A DNA stretch of 64,000 nt, taken from Bacillota bacterium (GTDB lineage Bacteria; Bacillota; Clostridia; Acetivibrionales; DTU013). Position 1 is the stretch's first letter; every line of letters starts with the position of its first letter. A program made the position numbers and the translations under genes. A model generated the notes under the pieces. It was not told where the DNA came from and searched no databases. It saw only the letters and a list, made by a program, of their open reading frames with translations. Positions 27,519 through 39,203 of this stretch are shown here, in pieces. The stretch lies in NCBI GenBank assembly GCA_023435745.1, contig JAEZMD010000007.1, positions 106,738 to 170,737 on the forward strand, read 5' to 3'.

Positions 27519-28466
27519 TCAATCAACCTCCTTTTCCTGGGTAACGATCTGCAGGAATATATCTTCAAGGCTAAGATTAAGTCCTTTTAGTTCGAGAATG
27601 GGATAGCCCAGCTTTGCCATTGCATAGAACAGAGGCTTTCTGATATCGATTTCCTTATCGGACTCAACAATATAGCTGAATGCTTCCCTTTCTTTTTCAA
27701 CTCCTGCTTCAACATACTTCACACCGTAAATTTCCCTTATCGCACTTTCAACAGAGCTCTTCGGTCCGGCTACCGTCAACATAAGCTTGGTCGCGACGCC
27801 AAATCCTCTGGAAAGATTGTCAGGAGTATCTATTGCTGCAATTTCGCCGTTATTGATAATAACGACCCGTTCACAAACAGCACTTACCTCAGGAAGAATA
27901 TGTGAACTGAGAATGATCGTATGCTCTTTGCCCAATGCTTTGATCAGTTTGCGGATTTCGATGATTTGCTTGGGGTCCAGACCGACAGTCGGCTCGTCCA
28001 GTACAAGAACCTGCGGATTTCCGATCAGGGCTTGTGCAAGTCCTACCCTTTGTTTGTACCCTTTGGAAAGGTTTTTGATCAGCCTGTTCCTGTGGTCGCC
28101 GATTTTAACAAGCTCCATAATGTCGCTCAGCTGATTTTTCTTAAGTTTTTTATCCACCAGCTTCAGATCCGCTACAAAATTAAGATAGTCCTTCACTGTC
28201 ATGTCCATATAGACCGGTGGCTGTTCGGGAAGATACCCTGTAAGTTTTTTAACTTCCTTCGGAGACTCCATGATATCATATCCGTTTACCTTTACTGTCC
28301 CTTCACTGGAAGGGATATAACCGGTGATGATATTCATCGTTGTGGACTTGCCTGCTCCATTGGGACCGAGGAATCCGAGAACTTCACCTTTCTCCACAGT
28401 GAAATTCAGATTGTTTACAGCTTTTATCTGACCATATCTTTTGGTCAAATTCTGTATTTCTATCAT
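27519..28466 (-). CDS. ABC transporter ATP-binding protein (GldA-like)
   Basis: Walker A GPNGAGKST, signature LSKGYKQR, Walker B LVLDEPT. Confidence 0.95.
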   Translation of the reverse strand: MIEIQNLTKRYGQIKAVNNLNFTVEKGEVLGFLGPNGAGKSTTMNIITGYIPSSEGTVKVNGYDIMESPKEVKKLTGYLPEQPPVYMDMTVKDYLNFVADLKLVDKKLKKNQLSDIMELVKIGDHRNRLIKNLSKGYKQRVGLAQALIGNPQVLVLDEPTVGLDPKQIIEIRKLIKALGKEHTIILSSHILPEVSAVCERVVIINNGEIAAIDTPDNLSRGFGVATKLMLTVAGPKSSVESAIREIYGVKYVEAGVEKEREAFSYIVESDKEIDIRKPLFYAMAKLGYPILELKGLNLSLEDIFLQIVTQEKEVD

Positions 28467-28537
28467 CTTTTTCCCTCCTGCTTTTCATGTCAATCCGGCA
28501 TGTGATGCTACCACAATTATGAAAGATACATTTTAAT

Positions 28538-28553
28538 AAATTGTGAACAATTT
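28538..28553. promoter_or_regulatory. Palindrome AAATTGT-GA-ACAATTT inside the spacer of a TTTACA/TAAAAT promoter for the ABC operon
   Basis: 7-bp arms seen in the sequence. On the minus strand it is embedded in TTTACA-aattgttcacaatttat-TAAAAT. Confidence 0.4.
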
Positions 28554-28588
28554 GTAAAATAATCATTCATAACATGTTGGGATTACAG

Positions 28589-28620
28589 CCCAAAAAGCCT
28601 CAAAATATGACTTTTAAGGC
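28589..28620 (-). terminator. Intrinsic terminator ending the defence-gene/non-coding-tail transcript
   Basis: Minus strand reads GCCTTAAAA-GTCATA-TTTTGAGGC followed by TTTTTGGG. There is no U-tract in the plus orientation. Confidence 0.7.
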
Positions 28621-28699
28621 TCCACTAATTATATAGTTTTTTATTTTGCATTTCAAGTGGAATTTCTGAGCTTGCTTTTTACTTGCTTTTTTCTCTCTT

Positions 28700-28965
28700 G
28701 CTACCGATTTTGACCGCCCAAAATCGGCGAAAAGGCGCCACTCAAACGACGTGGTGTCTGCTAGGGCACTGAGGAAAAACTTCTATACACCGTGCGACGA
28801 AAAACTTGTGGGGCAGTCGGCGCTTATTCGCCATCTAGGTTGCATAGGCGAGCAGTGAAGCAGTGAAGCTTCACGACCAGCCCATGGACTCAGGCGCGCC
28901 TGAAATGTACATCGTGTACATTTCACTGCCTTCTTTTGTCTTTCCCCGGGTGTATCACGAAGCTT
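28700..28965 (-). ncRNA. Candidate structured non-coding RNA / structured 3' tail (family not recognised)
   Basis: GC-rich core in an ORF-free interval of about 530 nt. It has several perfect hairpins (28704-28727, 28902-28924), a 12-bp palindrome (28891-28902) and nested long-range complementarity (28780-28791 with 28949-28962; 28812-28817 with 28925-28930). The strand is inferred only from the downstream minus-strand terminator. Confidence 0.35.
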
Positions 28966-29121
28966 TTCCTAACACTTTTAAGTGTCTTAGTAGAGCTTCA
29001 TTCTAATATGCTTTTCGATTTCTTCTACTAGCTGATATACGGTAGTACAAGGAGCTCTATCAGCAGGCGAATTTATAGACTCTGATCTGCAAAATAATAG
29101 TCTTGCATTTCGCATTGCATT

Positions 29122-29661
29122 TTAAAGATTAACTTCAGTATTAAGCATAGCAAAATGGTCATCTGATTTATTATATTTGGCCCCAAAAATATCACTAAGT
29201 CTCTTATAATATTCATCTCTTGTGATATTGCTTTCCAATAAATTAAAATGAAGCAAAAACCATAGCTCAATACATTCATTAGACCAAATGGGAATATAGC
29301 CTTTTCGGGCTGCCATATATATTGCGTCGTTAAATTGTCTCTTCGTAAATGAATCTTTATCAAAAACTGCAAAAACCTTTCCGTATGGGATGTTCGTTTT
29401 CCGTTTCAATTCATCAACAAAAGAAAAATACTCATCAACAGAGGATACCAATGACTCAGTGTTCCATCCCGTCCCTTTAATTTCAGGCTTTATTTTCCTA
29501 TCAGACTTTGAATTAACATAATCAAACAAGCTATTAAAGTAATTTGGCTCGGTCTTTTTGCCTTCACAAACAATTAACCATGTCTCCGATCTCGTTTTTA
29601 ATTCCTTTGATTTTCTTTCACGCCGGGCCTTCCCGTATTTTCTAAATAAATCATCCCCCAT
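29122..29661 (-). CDS. RloB-like (Toprim-like) protein, partner of the AAA15 ATPase
   Basis: WLIVCEGKKTEPNYF (conserved Glu) and FAVFDKD (DxD) are typical of RloB/Toprim. The ATG at 29661 is preceded by GAGGAAAA and overlaps the ATPase stop by 11 nt. Confidence 0.8.
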   Translation of the reverse strand: MGDDLFRKYGKARRERKSKELKTRSETWLIVCEGKKTEPNYFNSLFDYVNSKSDRKIKPEIKGTGWNTESLVSSVDEYFSFVDELKRKTNIPYGKVFAVFDKDSFTKRQFNDAIYMAARKGYIPIWSNECIELWFLLHFNLLESNITRDEYYKRLSDIFGAKYNKSDDHFAMLNTEVNL

Positions 29662-30883
29662 TGTCGTTTTCCTCGTCCTGAAATGGTATTGCTCCGAATC
29701 GTCCTGATAAATAATGCTTGCCAAAGCTTAAATCCGACCTGACTAATACTTCATCTTCTTTGAAATCATACAAAGAATACAAATTCGAAACTTGATTAAC
29801 CTTTTCAACAAACCAGATTTCATCTCTGCGTAAATCAGAGGAGTCAAGACAAACTAAATTGTGTGATGAAAAAATCAATTGCCCATCGCCGGTATTCACT
29901 TGTCTGTTACCATATAACGCTATGATATAGCGGAGAATTAAAGGGTGCAATTTTGCATCCAACTCATCAACCCAAAGCACCAATCCATTATAAAGAGAAA
30001 TAAACAACAGCGCCGCTAACGCAAACAATTTTTTAGTTCCACTGGATTCACTCTCGAAAGGTAATTGAATTACGTTTCCTTTATCATCGAGATGATAGCT
30101 ATACACAACATATTTTTCATTTAAGTCTGCATCCTTCTCGGGCAAAATCTCCAGGCGAACGATTGAACTGTCAAATTTACGAAGTAATTCCTCAACATCC
30201 TTTTTATTTTTCTCCCTTTTATATAGAAATTCTGCTATCAATTTTGTGCTCCACTTTTCATTAGAATCATCAGAAAAATCCTGATTCAAGCATGTTAATG
30301 AAAACCATTCGTAAACGTTTCTGTACTCACTTTTTTCTCTGCGACCAACAGCAGTCAATAATAACTCATTATCATTTATCATACTGCCGAGATATTCCAA
30401 CTCTTTTTTCTCAGTTTGATTTAATTTACCAACCGTAACTTTTCTATTGTTCCTGTAAAAAATCATTTTTTCTTTTGATTTTGTCCCTTTAGAAAATTTC
30501 TTTGTATACAGCCATTCATCAAATACTTGTGATTGATTCCTTACAAAACCGTATCTATACTCTTTATCATCAATATTAATGCTAACCTCATATTCGGTCG
30601 GTTCCTTTTCTGTGGTTTTGCTAAAGATATATGGTGTGATCAAATAATGATTTTCTTTTTTTTCATACACTGCCACGACATCTCTTCCCATGCTAAAAAA
30701 AGCAGAAAAAATGTTGGATTTCCCGCTTGCATTTGCGCCAAAAATCGCAGCTATCGGCAGCACCTTATTACCATTCTTTTCAATCAAGCTATTAACATGC
30801 TCCCTAATACTGGTAGCGGTTAAATCCAGCACTGCTTCTTCAGCAAATGATTTATAGTTCTTAAACCTGAATTGTAATAGCAT
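29651..30883 (-). CDS. ABC/AAA15-type ATPase of an AbiL-like two-gene defence module
   Basis: MLLQFRFKNYKSF start, Walker A GANASGKSN, signature-like SESSGTKK, Walker B LVLWVDELD, H-loop SSHN. The start at 30883 lies downstream of the predicted promoter; the track start at 30916 lies inside the -10. Confidence 0.85.
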   Translation of the reverse strand: MLLQFRFKNYKSFAEEAVLDLTATSIREHVNSLIEKNGNKVLPIAAIFGANASGKSNIFSAFFSMGRDVVAVYEKKENHYLITPYIFSKTTEKEPTEYEVSINIDDKEYRYGFVRNQSQVFDEWLYTKKFSKGTKSKEKMIFYRNNRKVTVGKLNQTEKKELEYLGSMINDNELLLTAVGRREKSEYRNVYEWFSLTCLNQDFSDDSNEKWSTKLIAEFLYKREKNKKDVEELLRKFDSSIVRLEILPEKDADLNEKYVVYSYHLDDKGNVIQLPFESESSGTKKLFALAALLFISLYNGLVLWVDELDAKLHPLILRYIIALYGNRQVNTGDGQLIFSSHNLVCLDSSDLRRDEIWFVEKVNQVSNLYSLYDFKEDEVLVRSDLSFGKHYLSGRFGAIPFQDEENDNGG

Positions 30884-30914
30884 GGTACACCCCGCTAAGT
30901 CTTTATTAACTATC

Positions 30915-30942
30915 ATTATATCACCTTCATCAATTTTGTAAA
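30915..30942 (-). promoter_or_regulatory. Sigma-A-like promoter of the defence pair
   Basis: On the minus strand: TTTACA (30937-30942), a 16-nt spacer, then TATAAT (30915-30920). Confidence 0.6.
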
Positions 30943-31147
30943 CATTTTCGAGAATATTTCTCCAAAATGCAGCTTTTTATAAATATTATTGACATATATC
31001 TGTACACTATTCAAACAATAAAGCATTTATACTAAAATTTGGAAGCTGGACATTCAGAAAGGGAGCACTACTGCAAGTGCTTGGAAACACAACCGGACTA
31101 AATGGATCTGACGGTACCTGAAGGGTCACTACCCACCTGGTTTAGTG

Positions 31148-33802
31148 TCACCTTCTTGTCTCTTCCCTCCCCCTTGGGAAGAAGCTGGCGAGCATAGGCA
31201 CAAGGCATGTAAGCCCGACGGTGACGAGCCACTCGTTCAAGCCAAGCGGCACCGTTTTAAAAATGTTCTGTAAAGAAGGAACATATACCACACCAAGCGT
31301 CATAAACAGCGAACAGAGCACTGCCAGTACAAGATACAGATTGTTAAAGATGGGAATCCGGAAGATGCTCATGCGCTCGGATTTACATTCAAACACATGA
31401 ATCAGCTGTGTGAGAACCAGCGTTACAAAAGCGCCTGTCCGTGCCATTCCGATATCGGCGGTATAATAGATCATGGTAATGTACACTGTCAGTGTCGTCA
31501 GGCCGATTAGAATGCCTCTGGAAAGTATAATATTGGCAAGCCCATGTGAAAAGATGCTTTCATCCGCTTTTCTGGGCATTCTCTTCATCACGTCCTTTTC
31601 CGGCGGATCAAAGCCCAGCGCCACTGCAGGCAAGCCATCCGTCACCAGGTTAATCCACAGTATCTGTATTGGAAGCAGAGGGACGGGTAAACCGGCAATC
31701 ATTCCCAGAAACATCGTCAGCACTTCTCCGATATTGCATGCCAGCATATACCTGATAAACTTGCGGATATTATTGTAGATGACCCTTCCCTCTTCAATGG
31801 CCGCTATAATGGTCGCGAAATTATCATCAAGCAGCGTCATGGCGGAGGCCTCCTTAGTCACATCCGTTCCTGTCATCCCCATTGCGACGCCAATATCCGC
31901 TTCTTTCACAGCTGGTGCGTCATTGACGCCGTCCCCGGTCATTGCTACAATATTGCCATTCCTTTTCAATGCTCTGACAATCCTCAGCTTATGCTTGGGC
32001 GAGACTCTCGCATATACGCTTACACCTTCAACAACCCTCTCAAGTTGTTTATCATCCAGTTCGTCCAATTCTGCTCCGGTCATAACCTTTTCATCGTCTG
32101 AGTAAATGCTCAATTCTCTGGCAATGGCGACTGCCGTCAACTTATGATCTCCAGTTATCATGACCGGTTTAATGCCTGCCAGCCTGCATTTGATAACAGC
32201 TTCAGCCGCTTCCTGCCTCGGCGGATCCAGCATTCCGATCAGTCCGATAAAGGTAAGATCCGATTCCAGTTCATCCCTGCTGTAGGGCAGGTAATCAAGC
32301 CTCTTATATGCAACGGCAATCACCCTCAGTGCATCAAGAGCCATTGCATCATTGGCTTTCGATATCTTTCGCTCCAGCTCATGAGTCAGTTGGGTGATCC
32401 CTTTTGCCTGACGGATGCTGCTGCATTTTTTCAGAAGCATATCCGGAGCGCCTTTTGTAAAAACAAGAGTTTCATCATTCTTATTACTGCACACAACGGA
32501 CATGCATTTTCTTTCAGAGTCAAAGGGGATCTCATCGATCCTGTAATACAGGGAGGCAAGCACCTCCGGAGTCAATCCTGCTTTGGCTGAAGCCACCATT
32601 AACGCGCCTTCTGTCGGATCCCCCGTAAAATTCCATTTTGTTTTATCTTGCTTTAAATGCTCACTCACAAGGCCTGCATTGTTGCATACAGCGGCAATCT
32701 CAAGGGCAAGCCTCACCACCTGATCCTTCAAAGGATCGATAGTACTGCCTCCTGAAAAAAATATATGCCCGTTTCCTTTTTTATCCTTGAGTTCCACCAC
32801 GCGGTCCCCTGCAAAAATCTTTCTGACTGTCATTTTATTCTGTGTCAGTGTCCCTGTCTTGTCAGAGCACACTACTCCGGCACATCCCAGCGTTTCCACC
32901 GCAGGAAGCCTTCTGATCAGAGCATTTCTCTTCAGCATTCTCTGAACGCCAAGTGCCAGCGAAATAGTAACTAACGCAGGCAATCCCTCCGGCACGGCCG
33001 CAACAGCAAGACTGATACCTGAAAGCAGCATGGAAAACGCATCCTCACCCCTCATGATTCCCGCTGCGGTCACGATCGCACATATGACCAGGCACCCGGC
33101 CGCAATGACCTTTCCAAGCTTCGCAAGTCTCTTCTGAAGCGGCGTCTGCTCTTCTTCGATGTTTTGTATCAAGTCGGCAATGCCGCCCATTTCCGTATTC
33201 ATGCCGGTGGCTGTAACAAGCGCTCTGGCTCTGCCCCCTGTTATGCTTGTGCCCATAAATACTCTGTTCTTTTTTTCTCCCAAGCCCATTTCTCTGTCCG
33301 GTGATACGGCAAACTTCTCCACAGGCACCGATTCTCCCGTGAGAAGGGATTCATCCACCTGAATACTTGAGCTTTCCAGTATAACCGCATCGGCTGGGAT
33401 TCTGTCGCCTGTTTCGAGTATGATCACATCCCCCGGAACAATCTGCTCTGCAGGGATGCTGATATGTCTGCCGCTTCGCAGCACCTTTGCTGCAGGCGCT
33501 GTTAAACTCTTCAGCGCCTCCATGGTTCTTTCCGTTCTGAATTCCTGAATAAAGCCCAGCAAGGCATTGAGAACAATAATTGCAATGATTGTGACCGCTT
33601 CGGTCATTTCTCCCATGAACGCAGAAATTGCTGTCGAAGCCATAAGAATGATTACCATGATATCTTTAAATTGGCCAAGCAGCAGTTTTATCATTGATAT
33701 TTTCTTTTTTTCTGAAAGCAGGTTCGGGCCGTGCTCCAGCAGCTTCTTTTTTGCCTCTCTCTCGCTCAGCCCGATACCCGAAGACGTATACTGTCTGTTC
33801 AA
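31148..33802 (-). CDS. P-type cation-transporting ATPase (Ca2+/Mg2+ P2-type)
   Basis: 884 aa with phosphorylation motif CSDKTGTLTQN, TGES, and hinge MTGDGVNDAPA. Apparent TTG start at 33802. Confidence 0.9.
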   Translation of the reverse strand: MNRQYTSSGIGLSEREAKKKLLEHGPNLLSEKKKISMIKLLLGQFKDIMVIILMASTAISAFMGEMTEAVTIIAIIVLNALLGFIQEFRTERTMEALKSLTAPAAKVLRSGRHISIPAEQIVPGDVIILETGDRIPADAVILESSSIQVDESLLTGESVPVEKFAVSPDREMGLGEKKNRVFMGTSITGGRARALVTATGMNTEMGGIADLIQNIEEEQTPLQKRLAKLGKVIAAGCLVICAIVTAAGIMRGEDAFSMLLSGISLAVAAVPEGLPALVTISLALGVQRMLKRNALIRRLPAVETLGCAGVVCSDKTGTLTQNKMTVRKIFAGDRVVELKDKKGNGHIFFSGGSTIDPLKDQVVRLALEIAAVCNNAGLVSEHLKQDKTKWNFTGDPTEGALMVASAKAGLTPEVLASLYYRIDEIPFDSERKCMSVVCSNKNDETLVFTKGAPDMLLKKCSSIRQAKGITQLTHELERKISKANDAMALDALRVIAVAYKRLDYLPYSRDELESDLTFIGLIGMLDPPRQEAAEAVIKCRLAGIKPVMITGDHKLTAVAIARELSIYSDDEKVMTGAELDELDDKQLERVVEGVSVYARVSPKHKLRIVRALKRNGNIVAMTGDGVNDAPAVKEADIGVAMGMTGTDVTKEASAMTLLDDNFATIIAAIEEGRVIYNNIRKFIRYMLACNIGEVLTMFLGMIAGLPVPLLPIQILWINLVTDGLPAVALGFDPPEKDVMKRMPRKADESIFSHGLANIILSRGILIGLTTLTVYITMIYYTADIGMARTGAFVTLVLTQLIHVFECKSERMSIFRIPIFNNLYLVLAVLCSLFMTLGVVYVPSLQNIFKTVPLGLNEWLVTVGLTCLVPMLASFFPRGREETRR

Positions 33803-36926: not shown

Positions 36927-39203
36927 CTATTTTTTACAGCTTTTGTTCCGGCCAAGAATCAAATTGGATAATTCACCACAATAATATAAATGCAGTTCAT
37001 GCAACGCCCTGGTACAAACCGTGTAAAGCAGCCTCCTGTCAACCTCCCCCGAATAATCCCATTCATCAGCCGTGCAAACAATTACGGCGTCAAACTCAAG
37101 GCCTTTCGCGAGATAGGAAGGAATTGCGACAATACCTTCCTTGTATACTTCTTTTTGATTTGTTATCGGGCTAATATCCACATACGGGTGCATGGATTGA
37201 TATAACCTTTCACATTCGCCTGCTGTTTTACATATGACTGCTATTAGTTTGTGGCCGTTGTTTTTAAGTTGTTTTATATCCTCGGCAATTTCTCTGTAAA
37301 GGTTTCCCCTGTCGCACTTGATAATTTCAGGTTTATTACCGTGCCGCCCGAGCTGTTCAGCGTTGGTCCGACATTGAAGAATTTCATTGCAGAAATCAGA
37401 AATCTCCAATGTAGAACGGTAACTTTTAGTTAATGTTATAAGTTCAGTATCCTTCGTTCCAAAGATATCTGCTGTAATATCAAAGCTGCCAATGTTCATA
37501 TAGGCATTTACGGTTTGATTCAGATCCCCCAGAATTGTTATATTACAGTGTTCAAAGGTCCTTCTCAGGACTTCATACTGAACAGCGGTATAGTCCTGTG
37601 CCTCATCAATGATAACATGCTTAATTGCTTTCGCATTATATTCACCCCCAAGTGCGGTGATTAATAGTAAAATCGGCGCCAAATCCTCATAATCGATGAG
37701 CCCCTGCTCCAATCGCCGGATGGTATATGCCCCTATATTTTCAAGATCATTATCATTTATATTATCACCGAGCCGGCCGCATGAGTCTTGATTAACATAC
37801 GATTTCAAATTTTTGATCAGATCACCATATAGCCGGTAAATATCAACAGAAGTCATTTGCTCTATTTCGTTCAGGATTGGCCCGAGCAATGCTTTGGCTT
37901 TCTGAGATGCCATTGTATTTTTCTCTGTTTCGTTTAGTGAACTATCCGCTGATAAATCACTTCTCAATATCTCATCAACCAGCTTTTCCTCGTAGGGTGC
38001 CGCAAGATAAAAGAGCCTTTGTCTCAGCTTTTCCAGCCGTTTCATATATGGCAGGTAGTTATAGTCTTCCCTGAACAGTCTGCTGATCTCTTCGGAAGAA
38101 ATAATAAGCACTCCGCCGTATGACAAGCTTTTGAATATTACGCTCCCTCCATGTTCAAGGTATTTCACGTAATCCTGTAAAATCATCAAAAATGTATAAG
38201 TTGCCTTAAGTTTAATGCTTTTAAGCCTTATGCTGTCAGATTTACCTTTCAGGACATATTCCATATGCCCGTTCATTGTCTCTATTCGATATTTAGTATC
38301 CGCCATCATACTCGCAAAAAAGTCTGCAAAGGTACTGCTTTCCACATTTTCTTCTCCAAGCTCTGGTAGAACATTAGAAATATAGTCCTCAAATACATGA
38401 TTCGGTGAAAAAATCAAAATATTCTCGGATTTCATATTCTCCCTGTATTTATACAAAAGAAACGCTGCTCTATGAAGCGCAATTGAAGTTTTTCCACTGC
38501 CGGCCGGGCCCTGGACTACAAGGATTCTATTCCGATCATCCCTTATGACACGGTTCTGCTCCTTTTGAATGCTCGTTACAATGGTTCTCATTCTGTTGTC
38601 TGTACTTTTCCCCAACATCTCCTGGAGCATTTCATCATTGATCCTTAGACTGCTGTCAAACATATACAAAATACGCTCGTTTTCGATTTTGTATTGTCTT
38701 TTAAGCAGCATCTGTCCATTTATACGTCCCATCGGACAGTCATACCCGGAAGGACCGGTTTCAAAGTCGTAAAACATACCTGATATAGGGGCTCTCCAAT
38801 CATACACGAGAATTTCCATACTTCCCACTTTAGCGAGGTTATATATTCCAATATAGATTTTTTCTGAAGCTTCCTCTCCCTCTTCTTTAAAATCTATCCT
38901 GCCGAAATACGGGCTTTTAAGCATTTTCTCCAGACGGCTGACCATATCGGTAGACCTCTTGTACTTTCTGGCCTGATTTGAAATATCCACCTGGTACTGC
39001 CACATCTGAGCTGGAGCGTCCAGGTCACACAAGTCGGTAGGTGTGCATTTGACCTCCTCCCACATACTCTTTTGAATTTCGATTGCTTCCCTTTTAAAGT
39101 TCCCAGCATCGCTGATACCTTTATCCAATTGTTTTTTAATTTCATTGACGACTTCTGTAAGGTAAATATTTTCAAACGCCAAGACGTTTTTATCAGTAAT
39201 CAT
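36927..39203 (-). CDS. helD: HelD-type UvrD/Rep superfamily-1 helicase (RNA-polymerase-associated)
   Basis: 758 aa with an N-terminal coiled-coil-like region, Walker A GPAGSGKTS, DEAQD, and C-terminal helicase motifs. Confidence 0.8.
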   Translation of the reverse strand: MITDKNVLAFENIYLTEVVNEIKKQLDKGISDAGNFKREAIEIQKSMWEEVKCTPTDLCDLDAPAQMWQYQVDISNQARKYKRSTDMVSRLEKMLKSPYFGRIDFKEEGEEASEKIYIGIYNLAKVGSMEILVYDWRAPISGMFYDFETGPSGYDCPMGRINGQMLLKRQYKIENERILYMFDSSLRINDEMLQEMLGKSTDNRMRTIVTSIQKEQNRVIRDDRNRILVVQGPAGSGKTSIALHRAAFLLYKYRENMKSENILIFSPNHVFEDYISNVLPELGEENVESSTFADFFASMMADTKYRIETMNGHMEYVLKGKSDSIRLKSIKLKATYTFLMILQDYVKYLEHGGSVIFKSLSYGGVLIISSEEISRLFREDYNYLPYMKRLEKLRQRLFYLAAPYEEKLVDEILRSDLSADSSLNETEKNTMASQKAKALLGPILNEIEQMTSVDIYRLYGDLIKNLKSYVNQDSCGRLGDNINDNDLENIGAYTIRRLEQGLIDYEDLAPILLLITALGGEYNAKAIKHVIIDEAQDYTAVQYEVLRRTFEHCNITILGDLNQTVNAYMNIGSFDITADIFGTKDTELITLTKSYRSTLEISDFCNEILQCRTNAEQLGRHGNKPEIIKCDRGNLYREIAEDIKQLKNNGHKLIAVICKTAGECERLYQSMHPYVDISPITNQKEVYKEGIVAIPSYLAKGLEFDAVIVCTADEWDYSGEVDRRLLYTVCTRALHELHLYYCGELSNLILGRNKSCKK

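Follow-up and report, generated by a model that had tools for sequence, protein, structure and literature searches.

AbiL was first described on a lactococcal plasmid and protects against phage (PMC13064643, Table 1), and phage resistance was reported for the lactococcal prototype by Deng et al. 1999 (cited in PMC13064643). Together with PARIS, it has been assigned to the systems in which an ABC ATPase of the AAA15/21 type is paired with a Toprim nuclease, and both are placed in one AAA15/21 defense tree (PMC11464382). In PARIS, AriA keeps AriB sequestered until it senses a phage protein; the AriB set free cleaves tRNA (PMC11464382). Here, we analyzed an AbiL-type locus in a 64,000-nt stretch of contig JAEZMD010000007.1 of a Bacillota bacterium (the whole stretch is referred to as the window, and all coordinates are window positions). 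The locus comprises an ATPase gene (abiLi) followed by an RloB-family gene (abiLii, hereafter rloB). Our favored reading, which we put at a probability of roughly 0.7, is that of an AbiL-type anti-phage module, carried on an AT-rich 2.5-kb insert, in which the effector gene was recently broken, so that the system is most likely disabled. The genes and the boundaries used throughout are as follows:

29651..30916, minus strand: ATPase open reading frame (ORF), 421 amino acids (aa) from the first ATG
29651..30883, minus strand: abiLi, AAA_21/ABC-type ATPase gene with its probable start, 410 aa (Pfam, PADLOC, conserved Shine-Dalgarno-like sequence plus ATG)
29122..29724, minus strand: RloB ORF, with the gene ATG at 29661..29659
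29125..29661, minus strand: translated part of abiLii/rloB, codons 1-179 (Pfam RloB, PADLOC AbiLii)
29122..29124, minus strand: premature stop TAA at codon 180, AAA (Lys) in relatives
28987..29121, minus strand: untranslated remainder of rloB, codons 181-224 plus the ancestral TAG, in the same frame and matching the C-termini of homologues
28987..31039, minus strand: AbiL module proper (regulatory region and both genes), the stretch common to the related loci L002, L005, and L008
28667..31147, minus strand: full extent of the insert (islet), bounded by the P-type ATPase stop and by the conserved promoter/leader of an ABC operon

The ATPase and its truncated RloB partner

To the ATPase, Pfam assigned AAA_21 (4e-30) and PADLOC assigned AbiLi (PDLC02335, E 1e-81, 272 bits, residues 8-417), with the next-best PADLOC models far behind (AriA 2e-33, PDC-M12A 8e-17, then HEC-01A and mad3). 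The second product matched Pfam RloB (PF13707; 2e-31, 110 bits against a cut-off of 31.5), though only over profile positions 2-147 of 195, and PADLOC AbiLii (PDLC02337, 8e-23). NCBIfam returned no match for either protein. A first-pass annotation, made by a model from the letters and their ORFs, had already named the pair AbiL (AbiLi/AbiLii) and had placed the second protein in the RloB family, and both assignments, the failure of which it had named as a refutation, are borne out by these profiles; of the two ATPase families it had put forward, AAA_21 was recovered and AAA_15 gave no Pfam match. We consider membership in the AbiL-type family of two-gene anti-phage modules to be very probable.

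The nucleotide-binding motifs listed in that annotation were likewise all found in the ATPase, and the majority of their key residues do not vary among 29 homologues with identities down to 42%, in which conservation was scored:

30713..30739, minus strand: Walker A GANASGKSN, residues 49-57; G49, A50, N51, G54, and K55 invariant, S53 and S56 conserved at 90% or more
30029..30052, minus strand: ABC-signature-like SESSGTKK, residues 278-285; E279, S280, and G282 invariant
29957..29977, minus strand: Walker B and D-loop LWVDELD, residues 303-309; D306, E307, and D309 invariant
29858..29869, minus strand: H-loop SSHN, residues 339-342; H341 and N342 invariant

The AlphaFold (AF2) model of the ATPase (predicted local distance difference test, pLDDT, 87.3; predicted template modeling score, pTM, 0.87) matched the ABC heads of SMC, Rad50/SbcC, and retron PtuA with a probability of 1.00 and E-values of 1e-10 to 1e-8, and a hidden Markov model (HMM) search of the PDB returned only weak matches to SMC or retron-PtuA heads. 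The ratio of nonsynonymous to synonymous substitution rates (dN/dS) of 0.09-0.11 for abiLi, and of 0.09-0.19 for both module genes across lineages, indicates purifying selection. Judged by its motifs and predicted fold, the protein is an intact ABC-type ATPase with an SMC/Rad50-like head.

As for RloB, the catalytic residues pointed out in the first pass, E33 (in WLIVCEG; 29565..29563) and D101/D103 (in FDKD; within 29373..29353), are invariant among the homologues. We read the fold from the model of a full-length homologue (P0122; 88% identical, pLDDT 82.8), in which E33 comes immediately after strand 27-32 and strand 95-101 ends with D101-x-D103; these two strands and strands 58-63 and 123-127 are separated by helices, in a beta-alpha-beta-alpha-beta-alpha-beta core. 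The modeled protein is of the Toprim pattern, i.e., a Glu after strand 1, a DxD after strand 3, and a four-stranded alpha/beta core. No DUF4435 or Toprim_OLD match was found among 69 RloB homologues, and an HMM search of the PDB with RloB gave no match.

The genes overlap by 11 nt within AATGGGGGATGA, from the rloB ATG at 29661..29659 to the abiLi TGA at 29653..29651, and the same overlap is present in the orthologous loci L002 and L008. The rloB ATG is preceded by GAGGA 9 nt upstream, and the two genes are translationally coupled through the overlap. The start of abiLi was taken at ATG 30883, because ATG 30916 is part of TATAATG, i.e., overlaps the -10 hexamer of the promoter, and because the 11 codons between the two ATGs showed no protein-level conservation in an alignment of five lineages. 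ATG 30883, together with a Shine-Dalgarno-like GGGGTG/GAGGTG, is kept in all five (alignment A5), so that the product is probably a 410-aa ATPase beginning with MLLQFRFKNY.

The main correction concerns the end of rloB. The first-pass annotation had the overlap right and took the second gene to run intact to 29122; that end is a premature in-frame TAA at a position where relatives encode Lys. In the DNA alignment, CTT TAA AAT stands against CTT AAA AAT/AAC in L002, L003, and L008, which corresponds to a single A-to-T transversion. The protein terminates with ...NTEVNL, whereas homologues go on with KNAMRN...APCTTVFQL.EEIE.Y, and its 179 aa compare with 221-250 aa in the 69 aligned homologues (alignment A3). 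The 44 post-stop codons (29121..28990, followed by the ancestral TAG at 28989..28987) still translate to NAMRNARLLFCRSESINSPADRAPCTTVYQLVEEIEKHIRMKLY. A full-length homologue covers Pfam RloB from 2 to 195, so that profile positions 148-195 are lost here; the lost segment contains the invariant A182 and the near-invariant L189, P204, C205, and T206. In the P0122 model, the stop falls inside helix 175-192, and this helix and helix 208-219, both lost, reach a pLDDT of 92-95, the highest in the model. No other residue of rloB departs from strongly conserved columns. A Logan contig (L001; SRR13347280) was identical to the window over 2570 bp, TAA included, and ends within a structured element 3' of rloB described below. 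A reassignment of TAA was considered and rejected, as TAA terminates 16 of the 49 long ORFs in the window, and a metagenome scan for either stop-codon allele returned no match; as L008 was not returned either, the collection evidently lacks these contigs. The earlier view of a complete, OLD-like pair of ATPase and Toprim protein thus stands for the families and the motifs, but not for completeness, since the nonsense mutation removes about 20% of RloB. With the ATPase intact, we regard the effector as probably non-functional in this genome, and the locus is probably a member of AbiL by descent whose copy was freshly pseudogenized.

Insertion site, carrier lineages, and neighboring features

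About 20 uncultured Bacillota/Oscillospiraceae-like relatives keep the order of MgtC, P-type ATPase, gap, and ABC-transporter operon; in most of them, the gap between the P-type ATPase and the ABC operon measures 200-350 bp. Empty sites were found, e.g., in L010, L013, L017, L020, and L021. In L010, the homologues of window positions ≥31175 and ≤28666 are only about 28 bp apart, and the insert was therefore delimited to 28667..31147. The P-type ATPase ORF ends at 31148 on one side; on the other, the ABC promoter (TTGAAA-17-TATAAT, 28656..28628) lies within the conserved flank and closely follows the P-type ATPase stop in L010. The module has a GC content of 0.340, compared to 0.450 ± 0.035 for other 2053-bp windows, which is the lowest of 1157 values and 3.1 standard deviations below the mean. 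At third codon positions (GC3), its genes reach 0.27-0.34, compared to 0.46-0.56 for the flanking genes. It is highly probable that the module was horizontally acquired or exchanged.

The module occurs at the same site in L002/L011 (GCA_964404395.1), L008, L005/L006, and L009, the last being the closest species representative, with a contig that ends 48 codons into abiLi. Its GC content in these carriers is 0.32-0.33, i.e., equally low, and blastn against L002 and L008 gave 81-85% identity over about 2.04 kb. Amino acid identities to the window were:

L002: AbiLi 89.5%, P-type ATPase 78.8%, RloB 74.4%
L008: AbiLi 80.7%, P-type ATPase 85.0%, RloB 80.8%

Identity ranks of the module are thus incongruent with those of the flank, and the synonymous divergence (pS) from L002 is 0.385 for abiLi and 0.66-0.70 for flanking genes. 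Moreover, L010, which lacks the module, has a P-type ATPase that is 87% identical and closer than those of the complete carriers L002, L005, and L008; among carriers, only that of L009 (94%; contig cut) is closer. This pattern does not agree with strictly vertical descent; it fits an exchange of the cassette between related lineages by way of the conserved flanks, combined with losses. The module itself is a mosaic, as AbiLi is nearest to L002 and RloB is nearer to L008 than to L002 (pS 0.571), and the pattern of identities implies that recombination occurred inside the two-gene cassette.

These comparisons refine what the first-pass annotation had claimed about the origin of the islet. Its AT-richness relative to the flanks was confirmed, and the suggested synteny comparison delimited it by means of empty-site relatives. 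Acquisition between two housekeeping units agrees with the empty sites and the deviant composition; the module is, however, not private to this genome but an old or repeatedly exchanged insertion, which is shared at the same site, and equally AT-rich, by at least four lineages without being carried by all relatives, so that the annotation's own condition for rejecting an islet applies only in part. A plasmid tblastn with the ATPase found no close relative (best identity 37.5%, on Clostridium plasmids). Phage-encoded members exist in both families (PHROGs), and an RloB-like Myoviridae protein is contained in BFVD.

A second, independent loss of the effector was identified in L005 (11263..11418) and L006 (3794..3949), from two JGI metagenome samples. 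Here, rloB is reduced to a 51-aa remnant ORF by a 511-bp internal deletion, equivalent to window positions 29606..29096, and abiLi is intact (421-aa ORF, 82% identical). Together with the nonsense allele of the window, this makes two lineages in which RloB was lost and the ATPase kept, out of four carrier lineages whose locus is complete.

Apart from AbiL, the same site holds a 294-aa protein with weak DUF559/restriction endonuclease-like matches in L014 (13079..13963) and L016 (12917..13801), an rve-type integrase-core protein of 224 aa in L018 (12881..13555), a VanZ protein in L023 (12880..13320), and a multi-ORF insert of ~4 kb in L047 (3978..7916), one ORF of which resembles the VanZ protein of L023. 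The intergenic site between P-type ATPase and ABC operon is a local hotspot for variable genes.

Upstream of abiLi, a promoter and a putative regulatory site were located:

30915..30942, minus strand: sigma-70-type promoter TTTACA-16-(TG)TATAAT, score 11/12 plus TG extension
30950..30962, strand not assigned: candidate operator, a palindrome (GAGAAATATTCTC) located 7 nt upstream of the -35 hexamer

The promoter, which had been proposed in the first pass as the module's own, would mean little as a consensus match in such AT-rich DNA, where promoter-like sites occur about as often as expected (12 found, 9.3 ± 3.2 expected). However, neither hexamer varies among five lineages that differ by 15-20% in their coding DNA. 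Twelve of the 13 palindrome positions are invariant in the five lineages, the seventh being A in L008 (alignment A5), and ~100 bp of non-coding DNA further upstream, to about 31039 and including, e.g., TTATTGTTTGAATA and GTCAATAATATTTATAAA, are conserved as well as coding sequence. The palindrome and this stretch suggest a putative regulator binding site for the AbiL operon. Next to the regulatory region, a junction of ~108 bp (31040..31147) reaches to the P-type ATPase stop and is shared only in part with L009; it has a hairpin, AGCACT-TGCAGT-AGTGCT, followed by CCCTTTCT, which may serve as the terminator of the P-type ATPase gene.

At the opposite end, the insert contains a further element:

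28704..28988, minus strand: structured element of ~285 nt, directly 3' of rloB, no part of the AbiL module in relatives

The region 28667..28986 is richer in GC (0.49) than the module, and the element folds with -125.9 kcal/mol on the minus strand (z = -6.6 against shuffled controls; plus strand z = -4.2) and contains the perfect palindrome TGAAATGTACA-tcg-TGTACATTTCA. None of the relatives, including L002, L005, L008, and L010, has it at this site. Two copies of 87-88% identity are found on unrelated metagenome contigs (L089, 2019..2302; L090, 2056..2338), in both cases directly 3' of a minus-strand gene for a UvrD-like helicase. The window encodes a 758-aa UvrD/helicase-IV-like protein 6 kb from the islet (36927..39203, minus strand), 36% identical to the helicase of L089/L090; no copy of the element follows that gene. 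A search with nhmmer, using the element profile on 91 fetched loci, yielded no further copies, and blastn against plasmids gave no match. Rfam had no match on the whole window at gathering thresholds and, at relaxed thresholds, a single chance-level snoRNA match in 28400..31250. The idea of a group II intron fragment, raised by a GTGCGAC motif in the GC-rich segment, was rejected, as a threshold of E ≤ 5 still brought up no Rfam intron family. In the alignment of the three element sequences, which amount to effectively two independent ones, stem substitutions were one-sided in 14 cases, compensatory in 1, and pair-breaking in 2, and their mostly pairing-preserving nature gives weak support to the structure. 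A mobile structured element and a terminator- or insulator-like RNA are candidate explanations for it.

Competing explanations for the locus

Several observations weigh against our favored reading. The truncated RloB keeps every conserved residue up to position 165, including E33 and D101/D103, and residual activity is possible because of these residues. The stop was seen in one genome, and the Logan assembly of SRR13347280 that repeats it may have been built from the same reads. Compared to L008, selection on the 44 codons past the stop is not relaxed (dN/dS 0.09); this constraint fits a very recent mutation and, equally, a C-terminus still in use or a sequencing error. Regarding the fold, Foldseek of the RloB model against the PDB gave no significant match (best E 6.5e-3, TM 0.3), and the Toprim fold is therefore without independent confirmation here. 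As for the insertion, the search for scars found no tRNA, no flanking direct or inverted repeats beyond chance, no target-site duplication, and no integrase ORF. Finally, a 2026 review leaves undetermined whether AbiL and RloAB act like PARIS (PMC13064643).

The system might still be functional, with the 179-aa RloB as an active, shortened effector and the lost C-terminal helices dispensable or regulatory. The retained catalytic Glu and DxD, the four core strands, all invariant residues up to K165, a Pfam score far above the cut-off, and the intact promoter and ATPase would agree with this. However, all 69 aligned homologues have at least 221 aa, the lost residues are conserved, and the stop interrupts a helix that is modeled with the highest confidence, which makes a shortened effector unlikely, though the strongest of the alternatives. 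The few shorter matches lie on contigs of <1.2 kb, except for one 192-aa protein (P0225). P0225 was considered as a second C-terminal truncation and rejected; its gene begins immediately behind the ATPase stop, without overlap, and from this gene start we judged it to be short at the N-terminus. A further possibility is that RloB is split, i.e., that translation stops at the TAA (29124..29122) and re-initiates at an in-frame ATG (29115..29113), 6 nt past the stop, which opens an ORF of 42 aa that spans the missing helices and whose product would complement the 179-aa fragment non-covalently. We give this very little credence, as the Met is ancestral (KNAMRN in homologues), no Shine-Dalgarno sequence precedes the ATG, the break falls within a predicted helix, and no precedent was found.

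The change is located at the junction of a T-run and an A-run, only one genome carries it, and the rest of rloB, including the post-stop codons, looks perfectly conserved. All of this could hint at an error of sequencing or of the consensus, by which TT-AAAAA became TTT-AAAA, in a real rloB of 224 aa and an intact AbiL. The Logan contig, produced with another assembler, carries the TAA in 100% identical sequence; moreover, the change is a substitution and not an indel of the homopolymer type, and the independent RloB knockout in L005/L006 demonstrates that effector loss does happen in this lineage. An error thus seems improbable. The pair might also be a selfish toxin-antitoxin (addiction) cassette or a restriction-modification accessory of the RloAB kind, instead of a phage defense. 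RloB proteins first came to notice as a family within type I restriction-modification loci, and the flanks of the islet are without phage-defense neighbors. In addition, NetFlax recovers AAA:RloB pairs as type II-like toxin-antitoxin systems (PMC10440598). Yet no hsd or other restriction-modification genes adjoin the islet, the best PADLOC models, AbiLi and AbiLii, are built around the phage-protective lactococcal Abi system (PMC13064643, Table 1), and toxin-antitoxin behavior can coexist with defense by abortive infection; we hold such a non-defensive role to be improbable as well.

The favored reading of a recently disabled AbiL module can be extended to the carrier lineages as a whole. AbiL would then decay effector-first and repeatedly, with RloB as the toxic partner or with an effector-independent role of AbiLi, and the 285-nt element would be an undescribed mobile structured RNA. 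This combination is unlikely; if true, the intact ATPase, promoter, and upstream palindrome next to a lost effector would be natural evidence for the toxicity of RloB or for an orphan role of AbiLi.

Comparison with known systems

By analogy to PARIS and to a tested pair of RloB-node toxin and AAA antitoxin, an intact module of this type may work as follows. An ATPase oligomer would bind the RloB nuclease and hold it inactive. In response to a phage-derived trigger, the ATPase would let the nuclease go or activate it; RloB, as a Toprim-like, metal-dependent nuclease, would then cut host or phage nucleic acid and abort the infection. AbiLi would accordingly combine the roles of sensor and antitoxin, with RloB as the toxic nuclease. 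The tested pair is from Clostridium algidicarnis, for which the RloB-node toxin was validated with its AAA partner in a toxicity-neutralization assay, as presented in Fig. 6B of PMC10440598. We infer that effector-first decay is the only viable order for a toxin-antitoxin-like pair, which matches the two natural knockouts.

AbiL pairs have entries in both PADLOC and DefenseFinder already, and they are very abundant (at least 5992 relatives of the AbiLi ATPase at E ≤ 0.001 among 8000 candidates scored), and the locus adds little new in this respect. It does call for caution in annotation, as HMM matches alone would count it as a complete AbiL despite the truncated effector. Furthermore, a single chromosomal site in four states (empty, intact, nonsense, and deletion) is usable for testing the toxic partner and the order of decay, and homologues with a natural effector-null allele are convenient material for a system that is without a solved structure or established mechanism (PMC13064643).

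Compared via the PADLOC and DefenseFinder models, AbiL of Lactococcus lactis pND861 likewise has an ATPase gene followed by an RloB-family gene; it is plasmid-borne, whereas the module described here is located on the chromosome of an uncultured Clostridia-like genome and has a truncated AbiLii homologue. PARIS also pairs an ATPase of the ABC type with a Toprim-class nuclease as two polypeptides, and AriA was the second-best PADLOC match of the ATPase. Its effector AriB, however, belongs to DUF4435, of which the RloB (PF13707) of the window has no match, and AbiLii fits AriB poorly in the published superposition (PMC13064643). The OLD-family nucleases, including P2 Old, Gabija GajA, and the retron-associated class 3, likewise join an ABC ATPase to a Toprim nuclease, whose pattern of catalytic Glu and DxD is present in RloB, but have both domains fused in one chain, in contrast to the separate genes of the window, and the RloB model gave no significant Foldseek match to any PDB chain, those of OLD and GajA included. 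The TOPRIM_OLD(D44, RloB-like):AAA(D29) pair of C. algidicarnis, recovered by NetFlax, is comparable at the family level, as an AAA ATPase is combined with an RloB homologue; it was validated as a toxin-antitoxin system, and phage defense was not shown for that pair. RloA/RloB of Campylobacter jejuni, with the same Pfam family and an AAA ATPase, reside in type I restriction-modification loci, whereas the window module has no such context and lies as an AT-rich islet with a P-type ATPase gene on one side and an ABC-transporter operon on the other.

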